A stretch of DNA of 64,000 nucleotides from a plasmid: the sequence record NZ_CP069678.1; one strand, written 5' to 3'. Made by a program: the position numbers and the translations under genes. The notes beneath the pieces were generated by a model, which saw only the letters and a list, made by a program, of their open reading frames with translations, was not told the DNA's origin and did not search any database. Positions 7,712 through 55,732 of the stretch are shown piece by piece. Positions within the stretch are counted from its first letter, which is position 1. The number at the start of each line of letters is the position of its first letter.

Positions 7712-9010
7712 TTGAACCGCCCCGGGAATCCTGGAGACTAAACTCCCTGAGAAAGAGGTAAACAGGATGACTAAAAATACTCGTTTTTCCCCCGAAGTCC
7801 GTCAGAGGGCGATTCGTATGGTTCTGGAAAGTCAGGGCGAATATGACTCACAGTGGGCGGCAATTTGTTCCATTGCCCCAAAGATTGGCTGTACACCGGA
7901 GACTCTGCGTGTCTGGGTACGCCAGCATGAGCGGGATACCGGAGGCGGTGATGGCGGGCTCACCACCGCTGAACGTCAGCGTCTGAAAGAGCTGGAACGT
8001 GAAAATCGTGAACTGCGCCGCAGTAACGATATCCTTCGCCAGGCTTCCGCTTATTTTGCGAAGGCGGAGTTCGACCGCCTCTGGAAAAAATGATGCCACT
8101 GCTGGATAAGCTGCGTGAGCAGTACGGGGTCGGACCGCTATGCAGCGAACTGCATATTGCCCCGTCAACGTATTACCACTGTCAGCAACAGCGACATCAT
8201 CCGGATAAACGCAGTGCCCGTGCGCAGCGCGATGACTGGCTGAAGAGAGAGATACAGCGCGTATACGATGTACGGTGTGCGTAAAGTCTGGCGTCAGTTG
8301 TTACGGGAAGGAATCAGGGTGGCCAGATGTACAGTGGCGCGCCTCATGGCGGTTATGGGACTTTCCGGTGTTCTCCGGGGTAAAAAGGTCCGCACTACCG
8401 TCAGCCGGAAAGCCGTTGTCGCAGGCGACCGCGTAAACCGTCAGTTCGTGGCAGAACGTCCTGACCAGTTGTGGGTGGCTGATTCTACTTACGTCAGCAC
8501 ATGGCAGGGGGTCGTCTATGTGGCGTTCATCATTGATGTGTTTGCCGGATACATCGTGGGGTGGCGGGTCTCATCGTCTATGGAAACGACATTTGTGCTG
8601 GATGCTCTGGAGCAGGCGTTATGGGCCCGTCGACCGTCCGGCACAGTCCATCACAGTGATAAAGGTTCTCAGTATGTATCGCTGGCCTACACACAGCGGC
8701 TTAAGGAAGCCGGATTACTGGCATCAACAGGAAGTACAGGCGACTCGTATGACAACGCGATGGCGGAGAGCATCAATGGCCTTTACAAAGCGGAGGTAAT
8801 ACACCGTAAGAGCTGGAAAAACCGTGCAGAAGTGGAACTGGCCACACTCACGTGGGTGGACTGGTATAACAATCGACGATTGCTGGAAAGGCTGGGCCAT
8901 ACTCCTCCGGCAGAAGCAGAAAAAGCTTATTATGCTTCCATCGGAAACGATGATCTGGCAGCCTGAGTTCACAGATAAAACACTCTCCAGGAAACCCGGG
9001 GCGGTTCACC
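7712..9010 (+). mobile_element. IS3-family insertion sequence, IS629/IS1203-like
   Basis: orfA lies at 7767-8093 and orfB at 8090-8966, split by a frameshift at ~8268-8284 (programmed -1 type). Terminal inverted repeats TGAACCGCCCCGGG... lie at both ends (7713 and 9008 reverse-complement). Confidence 0.75.
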
Positions 9011-9139
9011 TACAGAGTACCGCTACCACTTGTGAAGCTGGCAGATTCAGATTGTTTTCAATCGACAACGCCTCATAGTTAAAGTCATCAACGACATTGA
9101 ACGTGTGAAGTGGTCAACAAAAACTGGCCACCGAGTTAG

Positions 9140-9770
<631 letters not shown>

Positions 9771-40721: not shown

Positions 40722-41212
40722 TGTATAATTGGCAATATATGGGGATTCATAGTCATTTCTGAGATAATATACGTTAGGCCTTCTCTCCCGTACGGAAATC
40801 ACTTGTTTTCCGTAAATTACCTGAATCTTAATCCCTGAGCTGCGGCTAGCTGTGGAACTCACAAAAGCTGACCGGGCCGTGGCACAGCCTCTCTGCTGGC
40901 AGAACAGCGTACTGCAGAAGTCGTCGTACTGCCGCTGGTCCCGGCATCAGGTCTGCCCGCAGATGGCACTTCTGCCACTGATCTGCCGGTGGAGCTGAAC
41001 GGCATGACATATCAGGCCTGCCGTGGGGATTTTGTGGTGCGCCTCGACGGCAGCACCTGTCTGCAGTTATAGAATAAAGAAGGCGGGGAGGTACGCCGGG
41101 AGGGCGATCCGCTGGAAGTGGCGTAGTGGCTGTAGGCCTGTAATGATGCAGGAATAGAAGTTCGTGTACAGGTTAATGAAAGCATCACCCCGTAAAAACA
41201 TGCCGGCACGGT

Positions 41213-41521
41213 TTACACATCATTCCATGGTGGCAGCCGGTTAACTTTCCTGCGCCACCAGTGGAAAGAGGCCATGAGCAGTCCGAACAAAAAACCACTC
41301 GTGATACTTATAATAATGGCCTCACCTGCTACCATTCCTGACGGCCCCCAGTACATAAACCACATTGCACATCCCCAGGAAATACCCCATAAGCCCCCCA
41401 TCAGCAGCGTAACCTGCCAGAACGGCATAAAGGGCAATGGCGGAAGCCGGATACCCAGCCGCCAGAGAATACGCAGCAGAGGAGGAGCATAATTACTCCG
41501 CCACATCTTTTTGCTGTCCAT
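41213..41521 (-). CDS. hypothetical small membrane protein
   Basis: 102-aa ORF with two or three hydrophobic, Trp-rich segments. No recognised family. Confidence 0.3.
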   Translation of the reverse strand: MDSKKMWRSNYAPPLLRILWRLGIRLPPLPFMPFWQVTLLMGGLWGISWGCAMWFMYWGPSGMVAGEAIIISITSGFLFGLLMASFHWWRRKVNRLPPWNDV

Positions 41522-41619
41522 CAGGGCAATTGCCCGGGCTTTTTTTGCTCAAAAGTCACAGGAGCACCTCCGTTCCATGATGTAAACGTGACACAACTTA
41601 TTGTTATTGATTATTATTA

Positions 41620-42059
41620 TCATACCGTGATTATGTTGTCATGCACCTGTACACTGATAAAAGAAAGGGAGAACAGGAGGCTGGCTGAACAACCAATCCG
41701 TTCGTCCAGTTCAATGGCGGCTATCAGGTTCTGCTCCGCAATGTACTCACGAATGCGCTTCCTGTCCTGGCTGGCCAGCATGGTCCAGAATATCTCCATC
41801 ATTTACCGGCGACTTTCCTGCTCATTTCATCCCGCCATGCAGCAGCGGAAGATTCGACCATGTCATGGGGAAGCACATCGCCGCGCTCGAGTTGCTGACG
41901 TCCTGCCTCAACCTGGTCACGGAACCAGGTATTATGCTGCCGTTCCACGGTCTGGCGCATAAAATCCCGGATTAACTGAGAGCCATTACGGTCCATGCTT
42001 TTTGCAGGGCCATAAAAGCATCCTTCAGTTCAGCGTCAATTCTTAAACTCATATTAACC
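41620..42059 (-). pseudogene. decayed type II toxin-antitoxin pair (RHH/ParD-like antitoxin, frameshifted; RelE/ParE-like toxin, truncated)
   Basis: Minus strand MSLRIDAELKDAF... (RHH) shifts frame into ...MDRNGSQLIRDFMRQTVERQ... The downstream ORF 41620-41802 begins MMEIFWTMLASQDRKRIREYIAEQNL... (ParE-like) and then degenerates. Confidence 0.4.
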
Positions 42060-42677: not shown

Positions 42678-43952
42678 TTGTTTCGCCAGGATGCTTTAGA
42701 AAACAGAAAAATGAAGTGGCAGGGACGGGCAATATTACTTCCCGGAATACCACTGTGGTTAATCATGCTGGGAAGCATTGTGTTTATTACGGCATTTCTG
42801 ATGTTCATTATTGTTGGTACCTATAGCCGCCGTGTTAATGTCAGTGGTGAGGTCACAACCTGGCCAAGAGCTGTCAATATATATTCAGGTGTACAGGGAT
42901 TTGTTGTCAGGCAGTTTGTTCATGAAGGGCAGTTGATAAAAAAAGGGGATCCTGTTTATCTGATTGACATCAGTAAAAGTACACGCAATGGTATTGTCAC
43001 TGATAATCATCGCCGGGATATAGAAAACCAGCTGGTTCGTGTGAACAACATTATTTCCCGTCTGGAAGAAAGTAAAAAAATAACGCTAGATACCCTGGAA
43101 AAACAACGTCTGCAATACACAGATGCGTTCCGTCGCTCATCAGACATTATACAGCGTGCAGAGGAAGGGATAAAAATAATGAAAAATAATATGGAGAATT
43201 ACAGATACTATCAGTCAAAAGGACTGATTAATAAAGATCAATTAACTAACCAAGTTGCATTATATTATCAACAACAAAACAACCTTCTCAGTCTGAGCGG
43301 ACAAAATGAACAAAATGCCCTGCAGATAACCACTCTGGAGAGTCAGATTCAGACTCAGGCAGCAGATTTTGATAATCGTATCTATCAGATGGAACTGCAA
43401 CGACTCGAATTGCAGAAAGAACTGGTTAACACTGATGTGGAAGGCGAAATCATTATCCGGGCGTTGTCTGACGGGAAAGTTGACTCCCTGAGTGTCACTG
43501 TAGGGCAAATGGTCAATACCGGAGACAGCCTTCTGCAGGTTATTCCTGAGAACATTGAAAACTATTATCTTATTCTCTGGGTCCCGAATGATGCTGTTCC
43601 TTATATTTCGGCTGGTGACAAAGTGAATATTCGTTATGAAGCCTTCCCCTCAGAAAAATTTGGGCAGTTCTCTGCTACGGTTAAAACTATATCCAGGACT
43701 CCTGCGTCAACACAGGAAATGTTGACCTATAAGGGCGCACCTCAAAATACGCCGGGTGCCTCTGTTCCCTGGTATAAAGTCATTGCGACGCCTGAAAAGC
43801 AGATAATCAGGTATGACGAAAAATACCTCCCTCTGGAAAATGGAATGAAAGCCGAAAGTACACTATTTCTGGAAAAAAGGCGTATTTACCAGTGGATGCT
43901 TTCTCCTTTCTATGACATGAAACACAGTGCAACAGGACCGATCAATGACTAA
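42678..43952 (+). CDS. cvaA: CvaA, colicin V secretion membrane-fusion protein (HlyD family)
   Basis: Matches CvaA. An alternative in-frame start lies at 42711 (MKWQG). The 3' end overlaps cvaB by 8 nt. Confidence 0.85.
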
Positions 43953-46041
43953 CAGGAATTTCAGACAAATTATAAATCTGCTTGATTTGCGCTGGCAACG
44001 TCGTGTTCCGGTTATTCATCAGACGGAGACCGCTGAATGTGGACTGGCCTGCCTAGCAATGATATGCGGTCATTTTGGTAAGAATATTGACCTGATATAT
44101 CTTCGCCGGAAGTTTAATCTCTCTGCCCGTGGAGCAACCCTTGCAGGAATCAATGGAATAGCGGAGCAACTGGGGATGGCCACCCGGGCTCTTTCACTGG
44201 AGTTGGATGAACTTCGAGTCCTCAAAACGCCGTGTATTCTCCACTGGGATTTCAGTCACTTCGTCGTTCTGGTCAGCGTAAAGCGTAACCGTTATGTACT
44301 GCATGATCCGGCCAGGGGCATAAGATATATCAGCCGGGAGGAAATGAGCCGATATTTTACAGGCGTTGCACTTGAGGTCTGGCCCGGAAGTGAATTCCAG
44401 TCGGAAACCCTGCAGACCCGCATAAGTCTTCGTTCACTGATTAACAGTATTTACGGTATTAAAAGAACGCTGGCGAAAATTTTCTGTCTGTCAGTTGTAA
44501 TTGAAGCAATCAATCTGCTAATGCCGGTGGGGACACAGCTGGTTATGGATCATGCTATTCCTGCGGGGGACAGAGGGCTACTGACGCTAATTTCTGCTGC
44601 TCTTATGTTTTTTATATTACTCAAAGCTGCAACGAGTACGCTGCGCGCATGGTCTTCACTGGTTATGAGCACGCTCATCAATGTACAGTGGCAGTCGGGG
44701 CTGTTCGATCATCTTCTCAGACTACCGCTGGCGTTTTTTGAACGCCGAAAATTAGGTGATATCCAGTCACGTTTTGACTCCCTTGACACATTGAGGGCCA
44801 CATTTACCACCAGTGTGATCGGGTTCATAATGGACAGCATTATGGTTGTCGGTGTTTGTGTGATGATGCTGTTATACGGAGGATATCTCACCTGGATAGT
44901 TCTCTGCTTTACCACAATTTACATTTTTATTCGACTGGTGACATACGGCAATTACCGACAGATATCAGAAGAATGTCTTGTCAGGGAGGCCCGTGCCGCC
45001 TCCTATTTTATGGAAACATTATATGGTATTGCCACGGTAAAAATCCAGGGGATGGTCGGAATTCGGGGAGCACACTGGCTTAATATGAAAATAGATGCGA
45101 TAAATTCGGGTATTAAGCTAACCAGGATGGATTTGCTCTTCGGAGGAATAAATACCTTTGTTACCGCCTGTGATCAGATTGTAATTTTATGGCTGGGAGC
45201 AGGCCTTGTGATCGATAATCAGATGACAATAGGAATGTTTGTAGCGTTTAGTTCTTTTCGTGGGCAGTTTTCGGAAAGAGTTGCCTCTCTGACCAGTTTT
45301 CTTCTTCAGCTAAGAATAATGAGTCTGCACAATGAGCGCATTGCAGATATTGCATTACATGAAAAGGAGGAAAAGAAACCTGAAATTGAAATCGTTGCTG
45401 ATATGGGGCCAATATCCCTGGAAACCAATGGTTTAAGCTATCGTTATGACAGTCAGTCAGCACCGATATTCAGTGCTCTGAGTTTATCTGTAGCTCCGGG
45501 GGAAAGTGTGGCTATAACTGGTGCTTCCGGTGCGGGAAAAACCACATTAATGAAAGTACTATGTGGACTATTTGAACCTGATAGCGGGAGGGTACTGATA
45601 AATGGTATAGATATACGCCAAATTGGAATAAATAATTATCACCGGATGATAGCCTGTGTTATGCAGGATGACCGGCTATTTTCAGGCTCAATTCGTGAAA
45701 ATATCTGTGGTTTTGCAGAGGAAATGGATGAAGAGTGGATGGTAGAATGTGCCAGAGCAAGTCATATTCATGATGTTATAATGAATATGCCAATGGGATA
45801 TGAAACATTAATAGGTGAACTTGGGGAAGGTCTTTCTGGCGGTCAAAAACAGCGTATATTTATTGCACGAGCCTTATACCGGAAACCAGGAATATTATTT
45901 ATGGATGAGGCAACCAGTGCTCTTGATTCAGAGAGTGAACATTTCGTGAATGTTGCCATAAAAAACATGAATATCACCAGGGTAATTATTGCACACAGAG
46001 AAACAACGTTGAGAACTGTTGATAGAGTTATTTCTATTTAA
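43945..46041 (+). CDS. cvaB: CvaB, colicin V ABC exporter with N-terminal C39 peptidase domain
   Basis: 698 aa from MTNRNF. C39 catalytic Cys ([13 protein letters not shown]), six TM segments, NBD ([17 protein letters not shown]). Confidence 0.9.
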
Positions 46042-46166: not shown

Positions 46167-47495
46167 CTGATGAATCCCCTAATGATTTTTATCAAAATCA
46201 TTAAGTTAAGGTAGATACACATCTTGTCATATGATCAAATGGTTTCGCCAAAAATCAATAATCAGACAACAAAATGTGCGAACTCGATATTTTACACGAC
46301 TCTCTTTACCAATTCTGCCCCGAATTACACTTAAAACGACTCAACAGCTTAACGTTGGCTTGCCACGCCTTACTTGACTGTAAAACTCTCACTCTTACCG
46401 AACTTGGCCGTAACCTGCCAACCAAAGCGAGAACAAAACATAACATCAAACGAATCGACCGATTGTTAGGTAATCGTCACCTCCACAAAGAGCGACTCGC
46501 TGTATACCGTTGGCATGCTAGCTTTATCTGTTCGGGCAATACGATGCCCATTGTACTTGTTGACTGGTCTGATATCCGTGAGCAAAAACGGCTTATGGTA
46601 TTGCGAGCTTCAGTCGCACTACACGGTCGTTCTGTTACTCTTTATGAGAAAGCGTTCCCGCTTTCAGAGCAATGTTCAAAGAAAGCTCATGACCAATTTC
46701 TAGCCGACCTTGCGAGCATTCTACCGAGTAACACCACACCGCTCATTGTCAGTGATGCTGGCTTTAAAGTGCCATGGTATAAATCCGTTGAGAAGCTGGG
46801 TTGGTACTGGTTAAGTCGAGTAAGAGGAAAAGTACAATATGCAGACCTAGGAGCGGAAAACTGGAAACCTATCAGCAACTTACATGATATGTCATCTAGT
46901 CACTCAAAGACTTTAGGCTATAAGAGGCTGACTAAAAGCAATCCAATCTCATGCCAAATTCTATTGTATAAATCTCGCTCTAAAGGCCGAAAAAATCAGC
47001 GCTCGACACGGACTCATTGTCACCACCCGTCACCTAAAATCTACTCAGCGTCGGCAAAGGAGCCATGGATTCTAGCAACTAACTTACCTGTTGAAATTCG
47101 AACACCCAAACAACTTGTTAATATCTATTCGAAGCGAATGCAGATTGAAGAAACCTTCCGAGACTTGAAAAGTCCTGCCTACGGACTAGGCCTACGCCAT
47201 AGCCGAACGAGCAGCTCAGAGCGTTTTGATATCATGCTGCTAATCGCCCTGATGCTTCAACTAACATGTTGGCTTGCGGGCGTTCATGCTCAGAAACAAG
47301 GTTGGGACAAGCACTTCCAGGCTAACACAGTCAGAAATCGAAACGTACTCTCAACAGTTCGCTTAGGCATGGAAGTTTTGCGGCATTCTGGCTACACAAT
47401 AACAAGGGAAGACTCACTCGTGGCTGCAACCCTGCTTACTCAAAATCTATTCACACATGGTTACGTTTTGGGGAAATTATGAGGGGATCTCTCAG
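46167..47495 (+). mobile_element. IS10 (copy B, 1329 bp), inverted relative to copy A
   Basis: Identical 402-aa transposase at 46274-47482. Outside end at 46167, inside end at 47495. 9-bp duplication CATTCTGTG at 46158-46166 and 47496-47504. It is inserted between the 3' ends of cvaB and cvaC. Confidence 0.9.
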
Positions 47496-47548: not shown

Positions 47549-47860
47549 TTATAAACAAACATCACTAAGATTATTTGGACTCCAATTACACAATCTTCCC
47601 GCAGCATAGTTCCATGCTTCTGAAGGTATCCCTTCGGGTTTTTGCTTAATTGTTCCCCCTAAACCGGATGGAGACATTGCAGGATTAGGTTTGTGAGTGG
47701 ATGCATAGTCATATATTGCACCTCCAGCCACACCCCCAGCAGCTGCTCCAATTCCTCCTGCAACAAATTGCCCGGATAGTGTTCCTATAGCCATCGCAAT
47801 ATCACGCCCTGAAGCACCACCAGAAACAGAATCTAATTCATTTAGAGTCAGAGTTCTCAT
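47549..47860 (-). CDS. cvaC: CvaC, colicin V (microcin V) precursor with double-glycine leader
   Basis: 103 aa: MRTLTLNELDSVSGG-ASGRD... Glycine-rich core and a C-terminal Cys pair. Confidence 0.9.
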   Translation of the reverse strand: MRTLTLNELDSVSGGASGRDIAMAIGTLSGQFVAGGIGAAAGGVAGGAIYDYASTHKPNPAMSPSGLGGTIKQKPEGIPSEAWNYAAGRLCNWSPNNLSDVCL

Positions 47861-48074
47861 ATGATCTCCTTTTTATCTTATCGGATATTGAATAATAATT
47901 ATCACCAACAAAGTAACATATTGCAGACATTAATGCAGAGAAGCAAAATGTATGCATGGATAAAAAGTCCTTTCCTCTAAAAACACAATCATATATAGCT
48001 AATGCAATATATATTGCGGTGGCATTTATTATAAATGCAAATAACAACTCTAATTTTGTTCTTTTTCTATCCAT
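47838..48074 (-). CDS. cvi: Cvi, colicin V immunity protein
   Basis: 78-aa membrane protein MDRKRTKLELLFAFIINATAIYIALAIY... It lies upstream of cvaC and overlaps it. Confidence 0.9.
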   Translation of the reverse strand: MDRKRTKLELLFAFIINATAIYIALAIYDCVFRGKDFLSMHTFCFSALMSAICYFVGDNYYSISDKIKRRSYENSDSK

Positions 48075-48192: not shown

Positions 48193-49012
48193 TTGGAAAA
48201 CGGATTTCCCCACGTCAAGAGAATTGATTTGAACGAGTGGCTTCGCTACAAACAGCTCCCGTTTGTGTGTGAAAAACCCCTCTCAACAGATCTCAACTCT
48301 GCACGATATCTACAGGAGATTGCTCCAAAAGGCAGTATCGTGTCTTTTAACTACCGATATAACCCCGTCATCGACATGATAATGCGTCTGAGAAATGAGA
48401 AGAAATTAGGTGAACTGCATTTCTTCTCAGCAGAATTTAATAAAAATTCTGCACTGACCCGCCATCACCTGACCTGGCGAGACTCCGCACAACAGAGCAA
48501 AAGCAGCGGTGCTCTGGGCGATCTATCCTGTCATCTGCTTGATTTATTTTGTTTTATAGGGGAAAGCCCGGTAGTGGTTCATGGGATCAAAACGGTAAAG
48601 GGGACACGTGGGTACAAAATCAGATGGTCAGGTTGAAGTGGATGATAACGGCTATGTAATGGGCAGTTCAGAAAAGGGAGCTTATTTCAGAGTTCATGCC
48701 AGTAAATCGGAAACAGATCATAATTTGGGACTGCATATACAGCTTGTATTTGAAAATGGTGAAATCAGATATTCAACCCACCATGAAAATCGCCTGCTCC
48801 TGATTCTATTTAATGATACGAATACGGAAACAATTGGCTTCGACGCTCTGAAACGCTTGCCTGATCCACCACGGGAGCTTCCATTCTGGTCTGATTCGTT
48901 TATTCATCTTCATGACGACTGGTGTGCTCTTATTAAATATGGTCACTCGTCTCCTAAGCTAGCGGACCTGTCATCCGGCCTTCATATACAGGAAATAATT
49001 GAGGCATTCTGA
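48193..49012 (+). pseudogene. Gfo/Idh/MocA-family oxidoreductase, 5'-truncated and frameshifted
   Basis: Begins inside the protein at the conserved EKP motif (CEKPLSTDL), with no Rossmann N-terminus. A frameshift at ~48610 splits the C-terminal domain into two ORFs. Confidence 0.55.
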
Positions 49013-49013
49013 T

Positions 49014-49283
49014 ATGGATACCATTCTTTTAACCGGGCTGTTTGCTGCATTTTTCACAACGTTTGCGTTCGCTCCCCAGAGCATAAAAACTATCAGGACA
49101 CGCAATACCGAAGGTATCTCCGTTGTTATGTATATCATGTTCCTGACAGGTGTAATCTCATGGATAGCGTATGGCATTATGCGATCTGATTTTGCCGTAC
49201 TGATCGCCAATATTGTCACACTGTTTCTGGCTGCACCAGTGCTTGTAATAACACTTATCAACCGCAGGAAAAAACACGTATGA
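49014..49283 (+). CDS. SemiSWEET (single PQ-loop, 3-TM sugar-transporter family) protein
   Basis: 89 aa from MDTILLTG, with three TM helices and a PQ motif in TM1 (FAFAPQ). It resembles bacterial SemiSWEETs. The stop overlaps the next gene (ATGA). Confidence 0.7.
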   Translation: MDTILLTGLFAAFFTTFAFAPQSIKTIRTRNTEGISVVMYIMFLTGVISWIAYGIMRSDFAVLIANIVTLFLAAPVLVITLINRRKKHV

Positions 49284-50260
49284 ATATTGCAATCATCGGC
49301 GCGGGTCCTGCCGGCATCATTTCTGCCCGTAATGCGATTAAAGCAGGTCACTCCGTGGTTCTGTTTGAGAAGAATACCCGAATTGGGGAGATCTGGAACC
49401 CCTGGAGTGGTGGCGCTTACCGTAATGCCTGTATGCAGAACTCTCGTTATACATTTCATTATACTGGCTTTCCCCCTGGCGATATCGATGAATTTCTAGG
49501 AGTGGAACAGGTATTCAGATATCTTTCGGCCGTGGCCGGAGAGGATGCCCTCCGTGAGTCGATCCGACTGAATACTGAAGTTGTTTCACTCAGAAAAGAC
49601 GCCGGACACCGGGTGATCCGCTGCGCTTCTGAAGGAAAAGACACGGAAGACATTTTTGACCGGGTCATCATTGCAACAGGTGAACTCTGGCAACCCCGCC
49701 GGCCCCCCCTGCCAGGTGAGGAAAACTTCTCCGGAACGTTGATCACGTCGAGAGATTATCAGGAGCCAGAGGCATTTAAAGGAAAAAATATCCTCATCAT
49801 TGGCGGCGGTGTCAGCGGTGCGGATATTGCCTCAGACCTTGTTCCCTTTGCCAGAAGCGTAAGTCTGTCCGTCAAAAAGATGGGACTTTATCTGCCGAGA
49901 CAATTCCCGACTGGCCCGAATGACATGATGCACTCCTATCTGGGCAGGTGTCTGCTGAGCCAAATGAATTATGAAGATTTTATCGGTTATCTCGACACCA
50001 TGATGCCTGACTACATGCAGGCCTACCGAGCATCCAGTCTGTTGCCCGACATGGCGAACAATAACGCGGTGCATGTTAACGAAAAAATCATACCGAATGT
50101 GGCCGCCGGTCTGATAAAAGTTAAACCCCAGGCAGAGCGTTTCACCGGAGAAGGCGCTATTAAGTTCGTCGACGCATCTCAGGAAAAATATGATGTAATA
50201 ATAACCTGTACAGGCTATGAAATGCCTGATTACTCGTTCATTCGTAAGCGTACAGCCTGA
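49280..50260 (+). CDS. FAD/NAD(P)-binding flavin-monooxygenase-like oxidoreductase, C-terminally truncated by IS66
   Basis: Two dinucleotide-binding motifs (IIGAGPAG; IIGGGVSGADIA) and an FMO-like FSGTLITSRDY motif. The final codons read into the IS66 terminal repeat (GTAAGCG...). Confidence 0.6.
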   Translation: MNIAIIGAGPAGIISARNAIKAGHSVVLFEKNTRIGEIWNPWSGGAYRNACMQNSRYTFHYTGFPPGDIDEFLGVEQVFRYLSAVAGEDALRESIRLNTEVVSLRKDAGHRVIRCASEGKDTEDIFDRVIIATGELWQPRRPPLPGEENFSGTLITSRDYQEPEAFKGKNILIIGGGVSGADIASDLVPFARSVSLSVKKMGLYLPRQFPTGPNDMMHSYLGRCLLSQMNYEDFIGYLDTMMPDYMQAYRASSLLPDMANNNAVHVNEKIIPNVAAGLIKVKPQAERFTGEGAIKFVDASQEKYDVIITCTGYEMPDYSFIRKRTA

Positions 50261-51970
50261 ACCGTCTGGTCAGAATCTGACGAATTAGACAAAGTGGTGT
50301 CCACCAAATAAGTAGTGGGAACCAAAGTGTCAGATATGCAGAAAAATGTGACTCCCGGCAGGCGAAAAGGCTGCCCTAATTATCCTCCCGAATTTAAACA
50401 GCTGCTCGTTGCTGCCTCCTGTGAACCCGGGATATCCATCTCAAAACTTGCTCTTGAAAATGGCATTAACGCCAATCTGTTGTTCAAATGGCGACAACAA
50501 TGGCGCGAGGGAAAGCTGCTATTACCTTCTTCAGAGAGCCCCCAGCTACTTCCTGTGACTCTCGATGCAGCTGCCGAACAGCCAGAATCGCTTGCAGAGG
50601 ACCCGGAAACCCTCAGTATCAGCTGTGAGGTAACGTTCCGGCACGGGACGCTCCGCTTCAATGGCAATGTCAGCGAAAAGCTCCTGACTCTGCTGATACA
50701 GGAACTGAAGCGATGATCCCGTTACCTTCCGGGACCAAAATTTGGCTGGTTGCCGGTATCACCGATATGAGAAATGGCTTCAACGGCCTGGCTGCGAAAG
50801 TACAGACGGCGCTGAAAGACGATCCCATGTCCGGCCATGTTTTCATTTTCCGGGGCCGCAGCGGCAGTCAGGTTAAACTGCTGTGGTCCACCGGTGACGG
50901 GCTGTGCCTCCTGACCAAACGGCTGGAGCGTGGGCGCTTCGCCTGGCCGTCAGCCCGTGATGGCAAAGTGTTCCTTACGCAGGCGCAGCTGGCGATGCTG
51001 CTGGAAGGTATCGACTGGCGACAGCCCAAGCGGCTGCTGACCTCCCTGACCATGCTGTAAATCTCTTTATCCTGGTTGTCACAGAATAAGCCCGGTAAAA
51101 TACGGGCTTATGAACGACATCTCTTCTGACGACATCTTCCTGCTGAAACAGCGCCTGGCCGAACAGGAAGCGCTGATCCACGCCCTGCAGGAAAAGCTGA
51201 GCAACCGGGAGCGCGAAATAGACCATCTGCAGGCGCAGCTGGATAAACTCCGCCGGATGAACTTCGGCAGTCGTTCCGAAAAAGTCTCCCGCCGTATCGC
51301 ACAAATGGAAGCCGATCTGAACCGGCTTCAGAAAGAGAGCGATACGCTGACTGGTAGGGTGTATGACCCGGCAGTACAGCGTCCGTTGCGTCAGACCCGC
51401 ACCCGTAAGCCGTTCCCTGAATCACTACCCCGTGACGAAAAGCGACTGTTGCCTGCGGCGCCGTGCTGCCCGAACTGCGGCGGTTCACTGAGCTATCTGG
51501 GCGAGGATACCGCCGAACAGCTGGAGTTGATGCGTAGCGCCTTCCGGGTTATCCGGACGGTACGGGAAAAACATGCCTGTACTCAGTGCGATGCCATCGT
51601 GCAGGCACCTGCACCTTCGCGGCCCATCGAGCGGGGTATCGCCGGACCGGGGCTGCTGGCCCGCGTGCTGACCTCGAAGTATGCAGAGCACACCCCGCTG
51701 TATCGCCAGTCAGAAATATACGGCCGGCAAGGTGTGGAGCTGAGCCGTTCACTGCTGTCGGGCTGGGTGGATGCATGCTGCCGGCTGCTGTCTCCGCTGG
51801 AAGAGGCGCTTCATGGCTATGTCATGACTGACGGCAAACTCCATGCCGATGATACCCCGGTCCAGGTACTGCTGCCGGGTAATAAGAAGACGAAGACCGG
51901 GCGGTTGTGGGCGTATGTTCGTGATGACCGCAATGCCGGGTCAGCGTTGGCACCTGCAGTGTGGTTCGCT
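50245..51970 (+). mobile_element. IS66-family element (tnpA, tnpB, truncated tnpC), cut by Tn2
   Basis: GTAAGCG terminal repeat. orfs at 50315-50716 and 50713-51060 (the IS66 TnpB motif MIPLPSGTKIWL...). TnpC at 51110-51973 is cut at the Tn2 IR. Confidence 0.7.
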
Positions 51971-52005
51971 TAGGGGTCTGACGCTCAGTGGAACGAAAAC
52001 TCACG

Positions 52006-55000
52006 TTAAGCAACGTTTTCTGCCTCTGACGCCTCTTTTAATGGTCTCAGATGTCCTTTGGTCACCAGTTCTGCCAGCGTGAAGGAATAATGGCCGAGCA
52101 TATTGATATGTCCGTGGCAAAGCGGGGAGAGGCGTGCGATATCTTCATCATTCAGTGTTTCACCCTGCGCCCGGAGATGATCCAGGGCTGCCTGCATATA
52201 AATAGTGTTCCATAACACGACGGCGTTAGTGACCAGCCCCAGTGTGCCCAGTTGATCTTCCTGACCGTCGGTATATCGTTTTCTTATCTCACCTTTTTGA
52301 CCGTGACAGATGGCTCTGGCAACGGCATGGCGACTTTCTCCCCGATTAAGCTGGGTCAGAATGCGCCGGCGGTAATCTTCATCATCAATATAATTAAGCA
52401 GATACAGCGTTTTGTTGATGCGCCCCACTTCAATGATTGCCTGAGTCAGTCCGGAAGGACGTTCACTTTTCAGCAATGAACGGACCAGCACTGAAACCTG
52501 TACTTTGCCCAGCTTCAGGGAGCCAGCGGTCCGGATCATTTCGTCCCACTGAAGGACTATTTTTCGGGGATCTGATTGCCCTCTGGCAATATCATTCAGC
52601 ACGCCATAGTCGGCATCATGGTCCATTCGCCAGAAAACCGAAGCACCGGCATCAGCCAGGCGTGGAGAAAACTGGTATCCCAGCAGCCAGAAAAGGCCAA
52701 AGACAAGTTCGCTGGCACCTGCTGTATCGGTCATAATTTCGGTTGGATTCAGCCCGGTCTCCTGTTCCAGAAGACCTTCCAGCACAAAGATAGAGTCCCT
52801 CAGCGTCCCCGGTATAACGATGCCATGAAAGCCGGAATACTGATCGGACACAAAGTTGTACCAGGTGATCCCTCTGTTATTACCAAAGTATTTGCGGTTC
52901 GGTCCGGCATTGATTGTTCTGACTGGCGTAACAAAGCGCATTCCATCTGCAGATGCCACTTCTCCTCCACCCCATATCTGTGCCAGTGGCAGCGTTGCCT
53001 GAAAATCAACCAGTCTGGCATTAGCGCTGGTGATAGTTTCAGCCCGCAGATAGTTCGCTTTTGTCCAGTTCAGCCGGTGTCGGGTCAGTGCAGGAACATT
53101 TGATCTGATCAGTGGTTCCAGACCGATATTGCAGGCTTCAGCCATCAGCACGGCGCTGATGCTGACGGGCAGATCATCAACTCTGGCACTGGCTTCACTA
53201 GCATGGAAAAACTCATCAGCAAATCCGGTATGGGCGTTAATTTCGAGCAGCAACTCCGTTAAATCCACCGGAGGGAGTAGATCACTGATCATTTTGCTCA
53301 GTCGTTTCAGACTGTCCGGCTCATCAAGACTGGCGAGGGGAGAAATTGTCAACCGGGGCTTCGGGCCAGAAACATCGAGTTCGACAGCCTCATTTTCGCA
53401 AAGACGTGCAGCAACCTGTCTGTAACGACTATCAAGCTGATGACCCAGAGATTTTATTGCTTCCTGCGGGTCTGTCGGGTGCCCCAAAGAACGATAAACC
53501 TTAATCCGGTTTGCCTGCCAGTCAGCACCCTGTAGTAATCTTGCACGAGGATCTCCCCACCGGTTACTGCCGGTAACGTAGACATCCCTCCGCCTCAGAC
53601 TATCCTGCAGTTTACTGAGAAAGCAGAGCGTGTATCCCCTGCGGGTGATATGTTTTTCCTTGTTAATCACCAGCCGTTTCCATGACCGACTGATAATTTC
53701 CGTTGGTGCGTCGTCAAAAAACTGCCGCCGTGAGCTGAACTCCCGGCTGAGGTAGTCACAGGCATTCAGAGTGGTAACCCCGGCAGGTGCGGATGAAAAT
53801 TTAACGGTATTCAGCAGATGGGGCAGGAAACGACGAACGCGCCCGTACTGCTCCACCATTTCTTCATGAAAATTATCGTCTGAGGGCCGGGCAATTTCAC
53901 GGACAAGCGTGATGATTTCAGCCAGCTTTTGCCTTGGGATGTAGCTGAACACCTCAGCACGAATCGATTCGTCCGGTGTTTCTTCTTTCAGCAGGTACGA
54001 ACATGCGCTGGCGAGCGCCAATGCAGATTTATCCAGATCCTTCAGCGAGCGGAGCCGTTTTTTCTGCCCAATCTTTCTGGCGTCACGGATGATAACGGCC
54101 AGCATGGCGTCCAGAACGTCCAATGCATCATCCAGCGCCAGCGTTTCCCATGCAAGGACAAAGGCAACCAGAACCGCCATCCTTTTCTGCGGTGACATCC
54201 TGGCAATATTGAACACCGAAGTCATACCAGCATAACGTGCGAGATTTTTCAGGCGCACAGCCGGGAGTGTACTCAGGTTTTCAGCATGCAGGCCAAAATC
54301 GTTCAGAGTTTTCCAGCGTTCAATTGCTTCATTAAACGCCGGACCACTGATGGTCACAGGGCCCTTTTTCAGTGATTCCAGTAAAGACAGGCGGCTGCAA
54401 TCAGTTGGCCCCAGCAGCATCTCCAGCTGTGAACGCTGTTCGGCTGACGGTATCAGTGCCAGTTTGTTCCACAGGCGCAACGTCGCCTTTTCCCTTACCT
54501 CTGAAATCAACCGGGTCAGCGTAGTGGCTCCGGGGAGAATAATACGATGTTGCATAAGCCACCCTGTCGCCAGATCGAAAAGCAGGCCAGGACGTTCGTT
54601 GCTTATCCAGCTCCGGGTATATAAAAGACGGGTAAGGCGAAATGTCCAGGGCCAGGCAAATTCACGATACTGATAGTGCTGACGTATCAGCGCTGCATGC
54701 TCACGGCGGGTATTTTCCCTCTGACCGTATTCTGCAAGAACGGTGATATCACGAATCCCGAGCTGTCTGGCGGTAAAATGCCGGACGCCGGAAGGAATAT
54801 GATTCATATCGGTGAGGAAGGTGCCCAGAAAACGGACACATCCAATTTGCAGGGCAATGCCCAGACGGTTGTGATCACCTCTGCTTTTTCCGATAAATTC
54901 CTTGTCTGCTTCATCAAGGTGAAAATATCGTGCCAGCTGAAGCTCATCCGGTTCACCGGTGAATCTGCCATAGCTTTCAGTCTGCTCAGTGGTCAGAAAG

Positions 55001-55011
55001 TCAACGGGCAT
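52006..55011 (-). CDS. tnpA: Tn2/Tn3 transposase TnpA (1001 aa from MPVDFLTT)
   Basis: Matches the Tn3-family TnpA. The listed ORF extends 53 codons further upstream, through the res region. Confidence 0.9.
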   Translation of the reverse strand: MPVDFLTTEQTESYGRFTGEPDELQLARYFHLDEADKEFIGKSRGDHNRLGIALQIGCVRFLGTFLTDMNHIPSGVRHFTARQLGIRDITVLAEYGQRENTRREHAALIRQHYQYREFAWPWTFRLTRLLYTRSWISNERPGLLFDLATGWLMQHRIILPGATTLTRLISEVREKATLRLWNKLALIPSAEQRSQLEMLLGPTDCSRLSLLESLKKGPVTISGPAFNEAIERWKTLNDFGLHAENLSTLPAVRLKNLARYAGMTSVFNIARMSPQKRMAVLVAFVLAWETLALDDALDVLDAMLAVIIRDARKIGQKKRLRSLKDLDKSALALASACSYLLKEETPDESIRAEVFSYIPRQKLAEIITLVREIARPSDDNFHEEMVEQYGRVRRFLPHLLNTVKFSSAPAGVTTLNACDYLSREFSSRRQFFDDAPTEIISRSWKRLVINKEKHITRRGYTLCFLSKLQDSLRRRDVYVTGSNRWGDPRARLLQGADWQANRIKVYRSLGHPTDPQEAIKSLGHQLDSRYRQVAARLCENEAVELDVSGPKPRLTISPLASLDEPDSLKRLSKMISDLLPPVDLTELLLEINAHTGFADEFFHASEASARVDDLPVSISAVLMAEACNIGLEPLIRSNVPALTRHRLNWTKANYLRAETITSANARLVDFQATLPLAQIWGGGEVASADGMRFVTPVRTINAGPNRKYFGNNRGITWYNFVSDQYSGFHGIVIPGTLRDSIFVLEGLLEQETGLNPTEIMTDTAGASELVFGLFWLLGYQFSPRLADAGASVFWRMDHDADYGVLNDIARGQSDPRKIVLQWDEMIRTAGSLKLGKVQVSVLVRSLLKSERPSGLTQAIIEVGRINKTLYLLNYIDDEDYRRRILTQLNRGESRHAVARAICHGQKGEIRKRYTDGQEDQLGTLGLVTNAVVLWNTIYMQAALDHLRAQGETLNDEDIARLSPLCHGHINMLGHYSFTLAELVTKGHLRPLKEASEAENVA

Positions 55012-55072
55012 ATCGGCCTCCCTGCCTGACGGGCATTTAGTAACATTTTTCCAACCGTACGAAATGTTATAA

Positions 55073-55732
<660 letters not shown>

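Follow-up and report, generated by a model that had tools for sequence, protein, structure and literature searches.

The stretch of DNA analysed here, 64,000 nucleotides (nt) of sequence record NZ_CP069678.1 (hereafter the window, numbered from its first letter), is part of a ColV-type IncF plasmid. We describe the 2 kb to the right of the colicin V immunity gene cvi, where three genes follow one another on the + strand: a pseudogene for an NtdC-like dehydrogenase of the Gfo/Idh/MocA family (48241-49012), an intact gene for the SemiSWEET transporter EcSemiSWEET (49014-49283), and the truncated gene of a class B flavin monooxygenase (FMO)-like protein (49280-50243), at whose end an insertion sequence (IS) of the IS66 family begins. 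Between 48240 and 50243 the window is 99% identical in nucleotides to a larger cassette that is found intact elsewhere. The region is almost certainly a relic, and 48241-50243 is probably the non-functional remnant of a horizontally mobile six-gene aminosugar cassette, for which we propose a mechanism below.

Genes between cvi and the insertion sequence

From cvi to about 48240 the sequence is part of the colicin V side, and cassette homology begins only at 48240. Homology to the dehydrogenase starts at 48240/48241, which is codon 82 of 338, so that codons 1-81 are gone; the open reading frame (ORF) listed from 48193 opens with non-Gfo sequence, namely its TTG and first ~16 codons. The remnant is 99% identical in nucleotides to positions 8960-9733 of an Escherichia coli plasmid contig that carries the intact cassette (L002) and to a further intact cassette (L088). 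Two bases (GG; L002 9327-9328) are deleted at 48608, so that the remnant now reads as two ORFs; when GG is put back the frame is open to the native stop at 49012. The initial annotation had described this gene as truncated and frameshifted, which stands, and as starting at its EKP motif, which does not: the remnant begins 10 codons before that motif (residues 92-94). In Pfam searches, ORF 48193-48636 matches C-terminal Gfo/Idh/MocA domains only and ORF 48608-49012 has no match; neither Pfam nor alignment finds in the window remnant the N-terminal Rossmann NAD(P)-binding domain (PF01408) that is present in intact 338-amino-acid (aa) orthologues. Substitutions specific to the window lineage, polarised with L002, plasmid pAPEC-O1-ColBM and outgroups, comprise R135K, Q242H and one synonymous change in this stub (two nonsynonymous and one synonymous in total).

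The SemiSWEET gene encodes 89 aa (WP_000379710.1) and has a GAGG Shine-Dalgarno motif 9 nt upstream of its start. Its product matches PF04193 (PQ-loop; 44.6 bits against a cutoff of 22, 1.2e-11) and PF03083 (MtN3_slv; 39.4 bits against 23.7, 6e-10), and the identical protein of L002 scores 96.9 with NCBIfam NF037968 (SemiSWEET_2), the threshold being 80. SemiSWEETs have about 90 residues forming one triple-helix bundle, and the 89-aa window protein is identical over its full length, at 89 of 89 residues, to the solved chains of PDB entries 4X5M and 4X5N; at the protein level there is no difference from EcSemiSWEET. WP_000379710.1 presumably equals GI 446301855, the identifier cited in the EcSemiSWEET paper, an equation made by arithmetic. 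The protein is also identical in the intact cassettes L002 and L088. Its PQ motif FAPQS (P21, Q22) and the motifs SWIAYG (W50) and IANIV (N66) are invariant in five cassette orthologues; the roles of the PQ motif and of the pocket Trp and Asn have been described (PMC4309421). The two structures represent inward-open (4X5M) and outward-open (4X5N) states (Lee et al. 2015, PMC4309421). The assignment of this PQ-loop protein to the SemiSWEETs, made at first from the letters alone, is thereby confirmed, and the view of it as an obscure member of the family is not, for the protein is EcSemiSWEET, of which crystal structures exist, and RefSeq lists it under the name 'SemiSWEET transporter'. What we add to EcSemiSWEET is where its gene lies: it is plasmid-borne, takes fourth place in a kanosamine-type cassette, and in the window sits in a dead copy of that cassette. 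Among 5426 complete E. coli genomes, 403 have the gene, in 415 places of which 411 are on plasmids; all 409 matching records have an intact ORF at an identity of at least 99%. According to the structure paper (PMC4309421, Methods), K-12 genomic DNA served as the template for amplifying the gene. Positions 1-50000 of the K-12 F plasmid, checked as a possible source, gave no match to the gene.

The start of the FMO gene lies over the stop of the SemiSWEET gene in an ATGA at 49280-49283, the overlap that had been noted initially. The FMO ORF runs to 50260 and retains codons 1-321 of 510. Its 326-aa product matches PF00743 (E=6e-39, 134 bits) over profile positions 3-337 of 532, and aligns with intact 510-aa orthologues as far as ...PDYSFI, after which comes RKRTA*. 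The point of divergence is exactly the first base of the ISEc8-like element, 50244 (GTAAGCG...): the last five codons and the stop come from the first 17 nt of the IS, with R completed from the final cassette base and K-R-T-A following. The initial description as an FMO-type flavoprotein truncated by the end of an IS66-family element therefore holds. Both dinucleotide motifs (GAGPAG at residue 7, GGGVSG at residue 175) lie inside the retained 321 residues; residues 322-510 are missing, with the ISEc8 end in their place, and the C-terminal part of the fold is incomplete. The stub has acquired five nonsynonymous and two synonymous changes on the window lineage, and three of these, G37E (in the GG motif), W111R and G253S, replace residues that do not vary among nine intact orthologues. 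Compared with class B FMOs, including N-hydroxylating enzymes such as IucD, PvdA and SidA, the protein shares the two GxGxxG motifs and the GG motif, has a variant of the FMO-type motif with Thr in the place of His, and differs also in ending at residue 321 and in carrying these three substitutions. Full-length 510-aa homologues occur in E. coli (97% identity), Photobacterium, Plesiomonas, Erwinia, Pantoea and others.

A 2.15-kb stretch including both junctions is covered to at least 80% in 227 PLSDB plasmids (megablast), most of those listed being 100% identical, which argues that the arrangement is not a chance juxtaposition. In some records RefSeq places coding sequences on the fragments (WP_001323891.1, Gfo/Idh/MocA; WP_001389361.1, hypothetical; WP_001017346.1, FAD-dependent oxidoreductase; L001 6044-8111, equivalent to 48193-50260 of the window). 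All three are pieces of pseudogenes, among them the Gfo/Idh/MocA (147 aa) and FAD-dependent oxidoreductase (326 aa) ORFs.

The intact cassette and its enzymes

The initial annotation proposed an ancestral unit of three genes and set beforehand, as a test that could refute it, whether these genes co-occur elsewhere. They do, in several hosts; the intact versions, however, have six genes. In order, the block encodes a DegT-family aminotransferase of the PLP type (408-412 aa), a HAD-IIB phosphatase (276-282 aa), the Gfo/Idh/MocA dehydrogenase (338 aa), SemiSWEET (89 aa), the FMO (510-511 aa) and, convergently on the opposite strand, a hexapeptide acyltransferase with a left-handed beta-helix (150 aa). 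It is intact on two E. coli plasmid contigs (L002, L003) and on pAPEC-O1-ColBM (NC_009837.1, 69980-75332), between housekeeping genes on the chromosome of Erwinia amylovora, and in Photobacterium damselae and Pantoea ananatis; in Rodentibacter ratti it is found without the acyltransferase and adjoins integrase and TraI genes. A metagenome scan seeded with a SemiSWEET alignment retrieved 15 loci, all with an FMO gene directly downstream and 14 with a dehydrogenase gene upstream; aminotransferase and phosphatase genes are also present where the extent of the contig allows. The 5.6-kb cassette is covered to at least 80% in 59 PLSDB plasmids, and in other plasmids it carries IS2, IS3 or ISCro1 insertions. 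Its 5' part occurs in only 66-92 complete E. coli genomes, against ~400 with the SemiSWEET gene. A blastn comparison of the whole window with L002 gave no match to the aminotransferase and phosphatase genes. Each host has its own flanking genes. The six proteins diverge together, with identities ranging from 86-93% to 55-78%, and SemiSWEET is the most conserved of them; different flanks and co-divergence indicate a discrete unit that moves horizontally.

The first three enzymes resemble those that produce kanosamine in Bacillus. The best solved relatives of the aminotransferase are 7KZ3 (4e-91), which we take to be KabA although its PDB name is generic, and NtdA (4K2B, 2e-88), both near end-to-end, with the next family at 1e-50. 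For the phosphatase the best solved relative is NtdB (3GYG, 7e-47), the next match standing at 1e-6. For homologues of the dehydrogenase the sources give the name NtdC or glucose-6-phosphate 3-dehydrogenase, and a gap in score lies between them and generic Gfo proteins. No NtdC structure occurs among the PDB matches of the dehydrogenase, and as a proxy for characterised NtdC/KabC we used the protein at the NtdC position of a Bacillus ntd-type locus, laid out as LacI regulator (ntdR), NtdA (with an NtdA_N domain), HAD, Gfo and MFS; identity to it is 30% (4e-36). The best relatives outside the Ntd group are levoglucosan and inositol dehydrogenases. The solved relatives of the acyltransferase are mostly sugar N-acetyltransferases: a WxcM-like protein, QdtC, and a lipopolysaccharide-biosynthesis acetyltransferase. 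The latter two act on 3-amino sugars. Such relatives fit a role in self-protection or in the formation of a hydroxamate. In Bacillus, KabC/NtdC, KabA/NtdA and KabB/NtdB carry out the three steps from glucose-6-phosphate to kanosamine (PMC8788734).

From these relatives, and from a gene order equal to ntdA-ntdB-ntdC, we infer a kanosamine-type pathway, and the intact cassette probably encodes one. It shares with ntdABC(-glcP) of Bacillus subtilis and kabABC of Bacillus cereus the three enzyme families, their order and a sugar-transporter gene directly downstream. It differs from them in having SemiSWEET in place of an MFS transporter, an additional FMO and convergent N-acetyltransferase, and no LacI-type regulator; its hosts are Gram-negative, the unit is mobile, and identity is ~30-45%. 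Of this operon type the window keeps only codons 82-338 of the NtdC-like gene, frameshifted. An aminosugar other than kanosamine, made by NtdABC-like enzymes acting on another sugar phosphate or at another carbon, would accord with that level of identity to the Bacillus enzymes and with the varied sugars on which the further relatives of the dehydrogenase act. We regard this as unlikely: all three enzymes have Ntd or Kab proteins as best relatives or hold the equivalent operon position, and in the same order.

The FMO has as its best solved relative a polyketide synthase (PKS)-associated monooxygenase (8ODW, 7e-65), followed by reconstructed animal FMOs. We suspect that 8ODW is a PKS-embedded N-oxygenating domain; no claim made here rests on this. 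A scan of genome contigs with the FMO alignment and the generic Rossmann motif A[IV]IGAGPAG gave, among the matches listed, a Streptomyces contig as the sole real orthologue. A 481-aa Salmonella protein named 'Tn3 family transposase' covers 77% of the FMO query at 86% identity; it is probably the trace of a further truncation of the cassette, mediated by Tn3, on Salmonella plasmids.

Upstream of the intact cassette lies a stretch without a called gene, 0.8-0.9 kb long in L002 (5845-6664) and in E. amylovora (L084 5770-6663) and ~0.4 kb long in P. ananatis, and absent from the window; it is possibly a regulatory or leader region. About 3 kb from the cassette of P. ananatis (L086 15372-21536) there is a second small-molecule cluster, with Lyase_1, two ATP-grasp ligases, an MFS transporter, a PhyH dioxygenase and a second Lyase_1, which resembles dapdiamide/PNP-type antibiotic clusters.

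Role of the transporter

In the mechanism that we propose, kanosamine (3-amino-3-deoxy-D-glucose) would arise from glucose-6-phosphate in three steps, oxidation at C3, transamination and dephosphorylation, as by NtdABC/KabABC in Bacillus. The FMO might then, we infer, oxygenate the new C3 amine; the acetyltransferase would either protect the producer or complete a hydroxamate-type product; and the SemiSWEET uniporter would allow the product to leave the cytoplasm down its gradient. For a uniporter, and with a sugar that would be synthesised in the cytoplasm, the simplest role is export. Judged from gene content, the most likely ancestral function would be kanosamine-type aminosugar synthesis, N-oxygenation and export.

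A transporter gene recurs after the dehydrogenase gene in other layouts, where it encodes an MFS protein in both Staphylococcus and Bacillus. In a rearranged soil cluster (AT-Gfo-FMO-HAD-GT2-Gfo-MFS) the FMO is tied to the pathway independently of gene order, and an MFS transporter again replaces SemiSWEET. The recurrence of a transporter gene suggests that this slot serves the pathway. In proteoliposomes, EcSemiSWEET takes up sucrose slowly and without saturation up to 300 mM, and the authors of the structures doubted sucrose as its physiological substrate; W50A raises uptake, which they read as an enlarged binding pocket (PMC4309421). Weak sucrose uptake and the effect of W50A together fit a native cargo smaller than sucrose. 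SemiSWEET may thus far be put forward, tentatively and at slightly less than an even chance, as exporter of the pathway product. With somewhat more reserve, the cargo of EcSemiSWEET could be kanosamine or an N-oxygenated or N-acetylated derivative, and the cassette an undescribed Gram-negative unit for a secreted N-oxidised aminosugar; the cassette is found on IncF plasmids of E. coli and Salmonella and in E. amylovora, P. ananatis, P. damselae and Pasteurellaceae.

The main rival to export is that SemiSWEET imports glucose to feed or regulate the pathway, as is described for GlcP, encoded downstream of ntdABC in B. subtilis. An MFS gene does hold the same slot after an NtdC-like gene in Bacillus and Staphylococcus, and B. 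subtilis GlcP is reported to be a glucose/mannose symporter; a precedent among SemiSWEETs themselves is the L. biflexa protein, which, going by its citation in PMC4309421, has been studied as a glucose transporter. Enterobacteria, however, obtain glucose-6-phosphate directly through the phosphotransferase system, to which a low-affinity uniporter adds little. SemiSWEET is moreover the most conserved cassette protein, its stop is overlapped by the start of the FMO, which would act after kanosamine has formed, and an aminosugar antibiotic made in the cytoplasm needs an exit. Glucose import is therefore improbable in our estimation. Less probable still is the catabolic unit of the initial annotation, in which SemiSWEET imports a sugar-like substrate that the Gfo/Idh/MocA enzyme and the FMO oxidise. 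Gfo/Idh/MocA enzymes often open sugar catabolism, levoglucosan and inositol dehydrogenases being the best non-Ntd relatives here, and SemiSWEETs are bidirectional uniporters (PMC4309421). Yet the intact unit starts with close homologues of NtdA/KabA and NtdB, which are biosynthetic enzymes; a phosphatase without a kinase would leave an imported sugar unable to enter a phosphorylated pathway; and the same enzyme set occurs without any transporter in Elizabethkingia. The NtdA/B/C-like triad and a phosphatase unaccompanied by a kinase point instead to biosynthesis and export rather than to uptake and oxidation.

Several observations weigh against synthesis and export of a kanosamine-type product. 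At ~30-45% identity to the Bacillus enzymes, substrate specificity may differ. A reading of the SemiSWEET sequence, as distinct from a structural analysis, found no acidic residue in the transmembrane stretches to pair with a protonated amine. The MFS gene in the equivalent Bacillus slot, glcP, is described as encoding a glucose importer. In the FMO, the identifying motif FxGxxxHxxxY reads FSGTLITSRDY, with Thr where FMOs have His. An FMO orthologue stands alone in Yersinia canariae, and actinomycete orthologues (~45% identity) belong to a different conserved cluster, GH1-rSAM-FMO-MFS-GT2-PIG-L deacetylase-GH3 (Streptomyces L004 4150-16982; Actinokineospora L090 7436-16725). A sugar cluster of this kind agrees with a sugar or aminosugar substrate for the FMO, and yet the FMO is not bound to Ntd genes alone.

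Decay of the relic and plasmid history

The joining of the colicin V locus to dehydrogenase codon 82 left the cassette without its promoter region, aminotransferase, phosphatase and NAD-binding domain. After the junction came the 2-bp deletion in the dehydrogenase stub, and the ISEc8 end removed FMO codons 322-510 and the acetyltransferase. Counted over both stubs, the lineage-specific substitutions come to seven nonsynonymous and three synonymous, and three of the ten alter FMO columns that are otherwise invariant, a pattern that indicates neutral decay. Truncation, deletion, IS end and substitutions all agree with the initial view of a decaying module.

Three relic states, that of the window and two more in metagenome contigs, share an identical cvi junction (L098, L099 and L100 compared). 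In one of the metagenome states there is no 2-bp deletion, the FMO is kept no further than codon 71 and the acyltransferase is still present; the other combines that FMO deletion with the 2-bp deletion. The three fit no simple tree, which implies recombination among ColV plasmids or recurrent deletion at ACGGGTGGG. An unrelated locus (L111) holds an independent IS-eroded version of the cassette.

The initial annotation had singled out SemiSWEET as the only intact member of the module. Intact it is, with zero changes on the window lineage, but as evidence of retained function this lies within chance expectation. At the rate of the stubs (10 changes in 1735 nt) ~1.6 changes are expected in its 270 nt, and the probability of none is ~0.2; that three post-junction disabling events all miss a gene making up ~13% of the relic has a probability of ~0.66. 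On these figures intactness is not evidence of selection or function. A promoter scan, which only counted consensus matches, found promoter-like matches on the + strand to be no commoner than in shuffled sequence, and neither supports nor excludes transcription of the gene in the relic. Selection for a function of its own, for example sugar uniport useful to extraintestinal or avian pathogenic E. coli (ExPEC, APEC), might be read from the conservation of the ORF across complete E. coli genomes given above, from a protein that is 100% identical across three differently decayed states, and from the preserved GAGG ribosome-binding site. We nevertheless consider it very unlikely, the native promoter region being deleted and promoter-like matches standing at shuffled level, and we rejected selection as the cause of intactness, to which the two probabilities lend no support. 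The SemiSWEET gene of the relic is most probably carried along as a passenger, since the pathway that it would serve is gone and no promoter can be recognised.

On the right, the ISEc8-like element (50244-51972, + strand) is 99.4% identical to the ISEc8 of pAPEC-O1-ColBM. In keeping with the IS66 family, it has a terminal repeat beginning GTAAGCG and, in order in the ORF list, tnpA (50315-50716), tnpB (50713-51060) and a truncated tnpC (51110-51973). The copy in the window ends inside tnpC at 51972, where a Tn3-family inverted repeat, GGGGTCTGACGCTCAGTGGAACGAAAACTCACGTTAAG (51973-52010), cuts it; next to this repeat lies a Tn2/Tn3-like tnpA on the minus strand (ORF 52006-55170). The interruption of ISEc8 tnpC by this repeat and tnpA (51973-55170) means that mobile elements are nested one in another to the right of the relic.

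On the left, the nearest neighbour is cvi (47838-48074, minus strand), a 78-aa ORF identified from the matching position in the reference ColV plasmid NZ_CP074681.1, which is annotated as colicin V immunity protein within the same cva layout; the ORF list also gives cvaC (47549-47860, minus strand) and cvaB (43927-46041). Between cvaB and cvaC the window holds a 1329-bp IS10 copy (46167-47495; transposase ORF 46274-47482, + strand) flanked by a 9-bp target duplication, CATTCTGTG, at a site that is uninterrupted in NZ_CP074681.1. Two further segments of the window match L002: 1-4258, the RepFIB-side region, at 99%, and 40898-41688, with a DUF6404 gene, at 94%. Plain insertion of the cva operon, and with it the colicin V locus, into the backbone of an L002-like plasmid was considered and rejected, because the order of the DUF6404 and cassette segments in the window is permuted compared with L002.

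Much of what is found here was already known: SemiSWEET at atomic resolution, an ordinary IS, ordinary FMO and Gfo folds, and a relic annotated in hundreds of records, in which its fragments often figure as normal coding sequences instead of pseudogenes. A literature search yielded no paper linking SemiSWEET with kanosamine, and nothing relevant on kanosamine with ColV or on SemiSWEET with biosynthetic gene clusters; the place of EcSemiSWEET in a conserved kanosamine-type cassette with FMO and acetyltransferase is not described in the literature searched.

The locus in the window is most likely biologically inert, and its interest is indirect, as a pointer to a candidate native substrate of a well-studied transporter. 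The 147-aa and 326-aa fragments should accordingly not be counted as metabolic or fitness traits of APEC/ExPEC virulence plasmids. The shared cvi junction and the differing states of decay are usable markers of plasmid history, and pAPEC-O1-ColBM, of ColBM type, keeps the ancestral intact state at this locus. EcSemiSWEET, one of the leading structural models of the SWEET/PQ-loop superfamily, often serves to illustrate alternating access in these transporters, and its gene neighbourhood now names a testable candidate cargo; if true, this would be the first defined native role for a bacterial SemiSWEET, that of a secondary-metabolite exporter. The intact cassette, for its part, may direct the synthesis of a secreted metabolite that has gone unrecognised in the fire-blight pathogen and in bacteria associated with animals.

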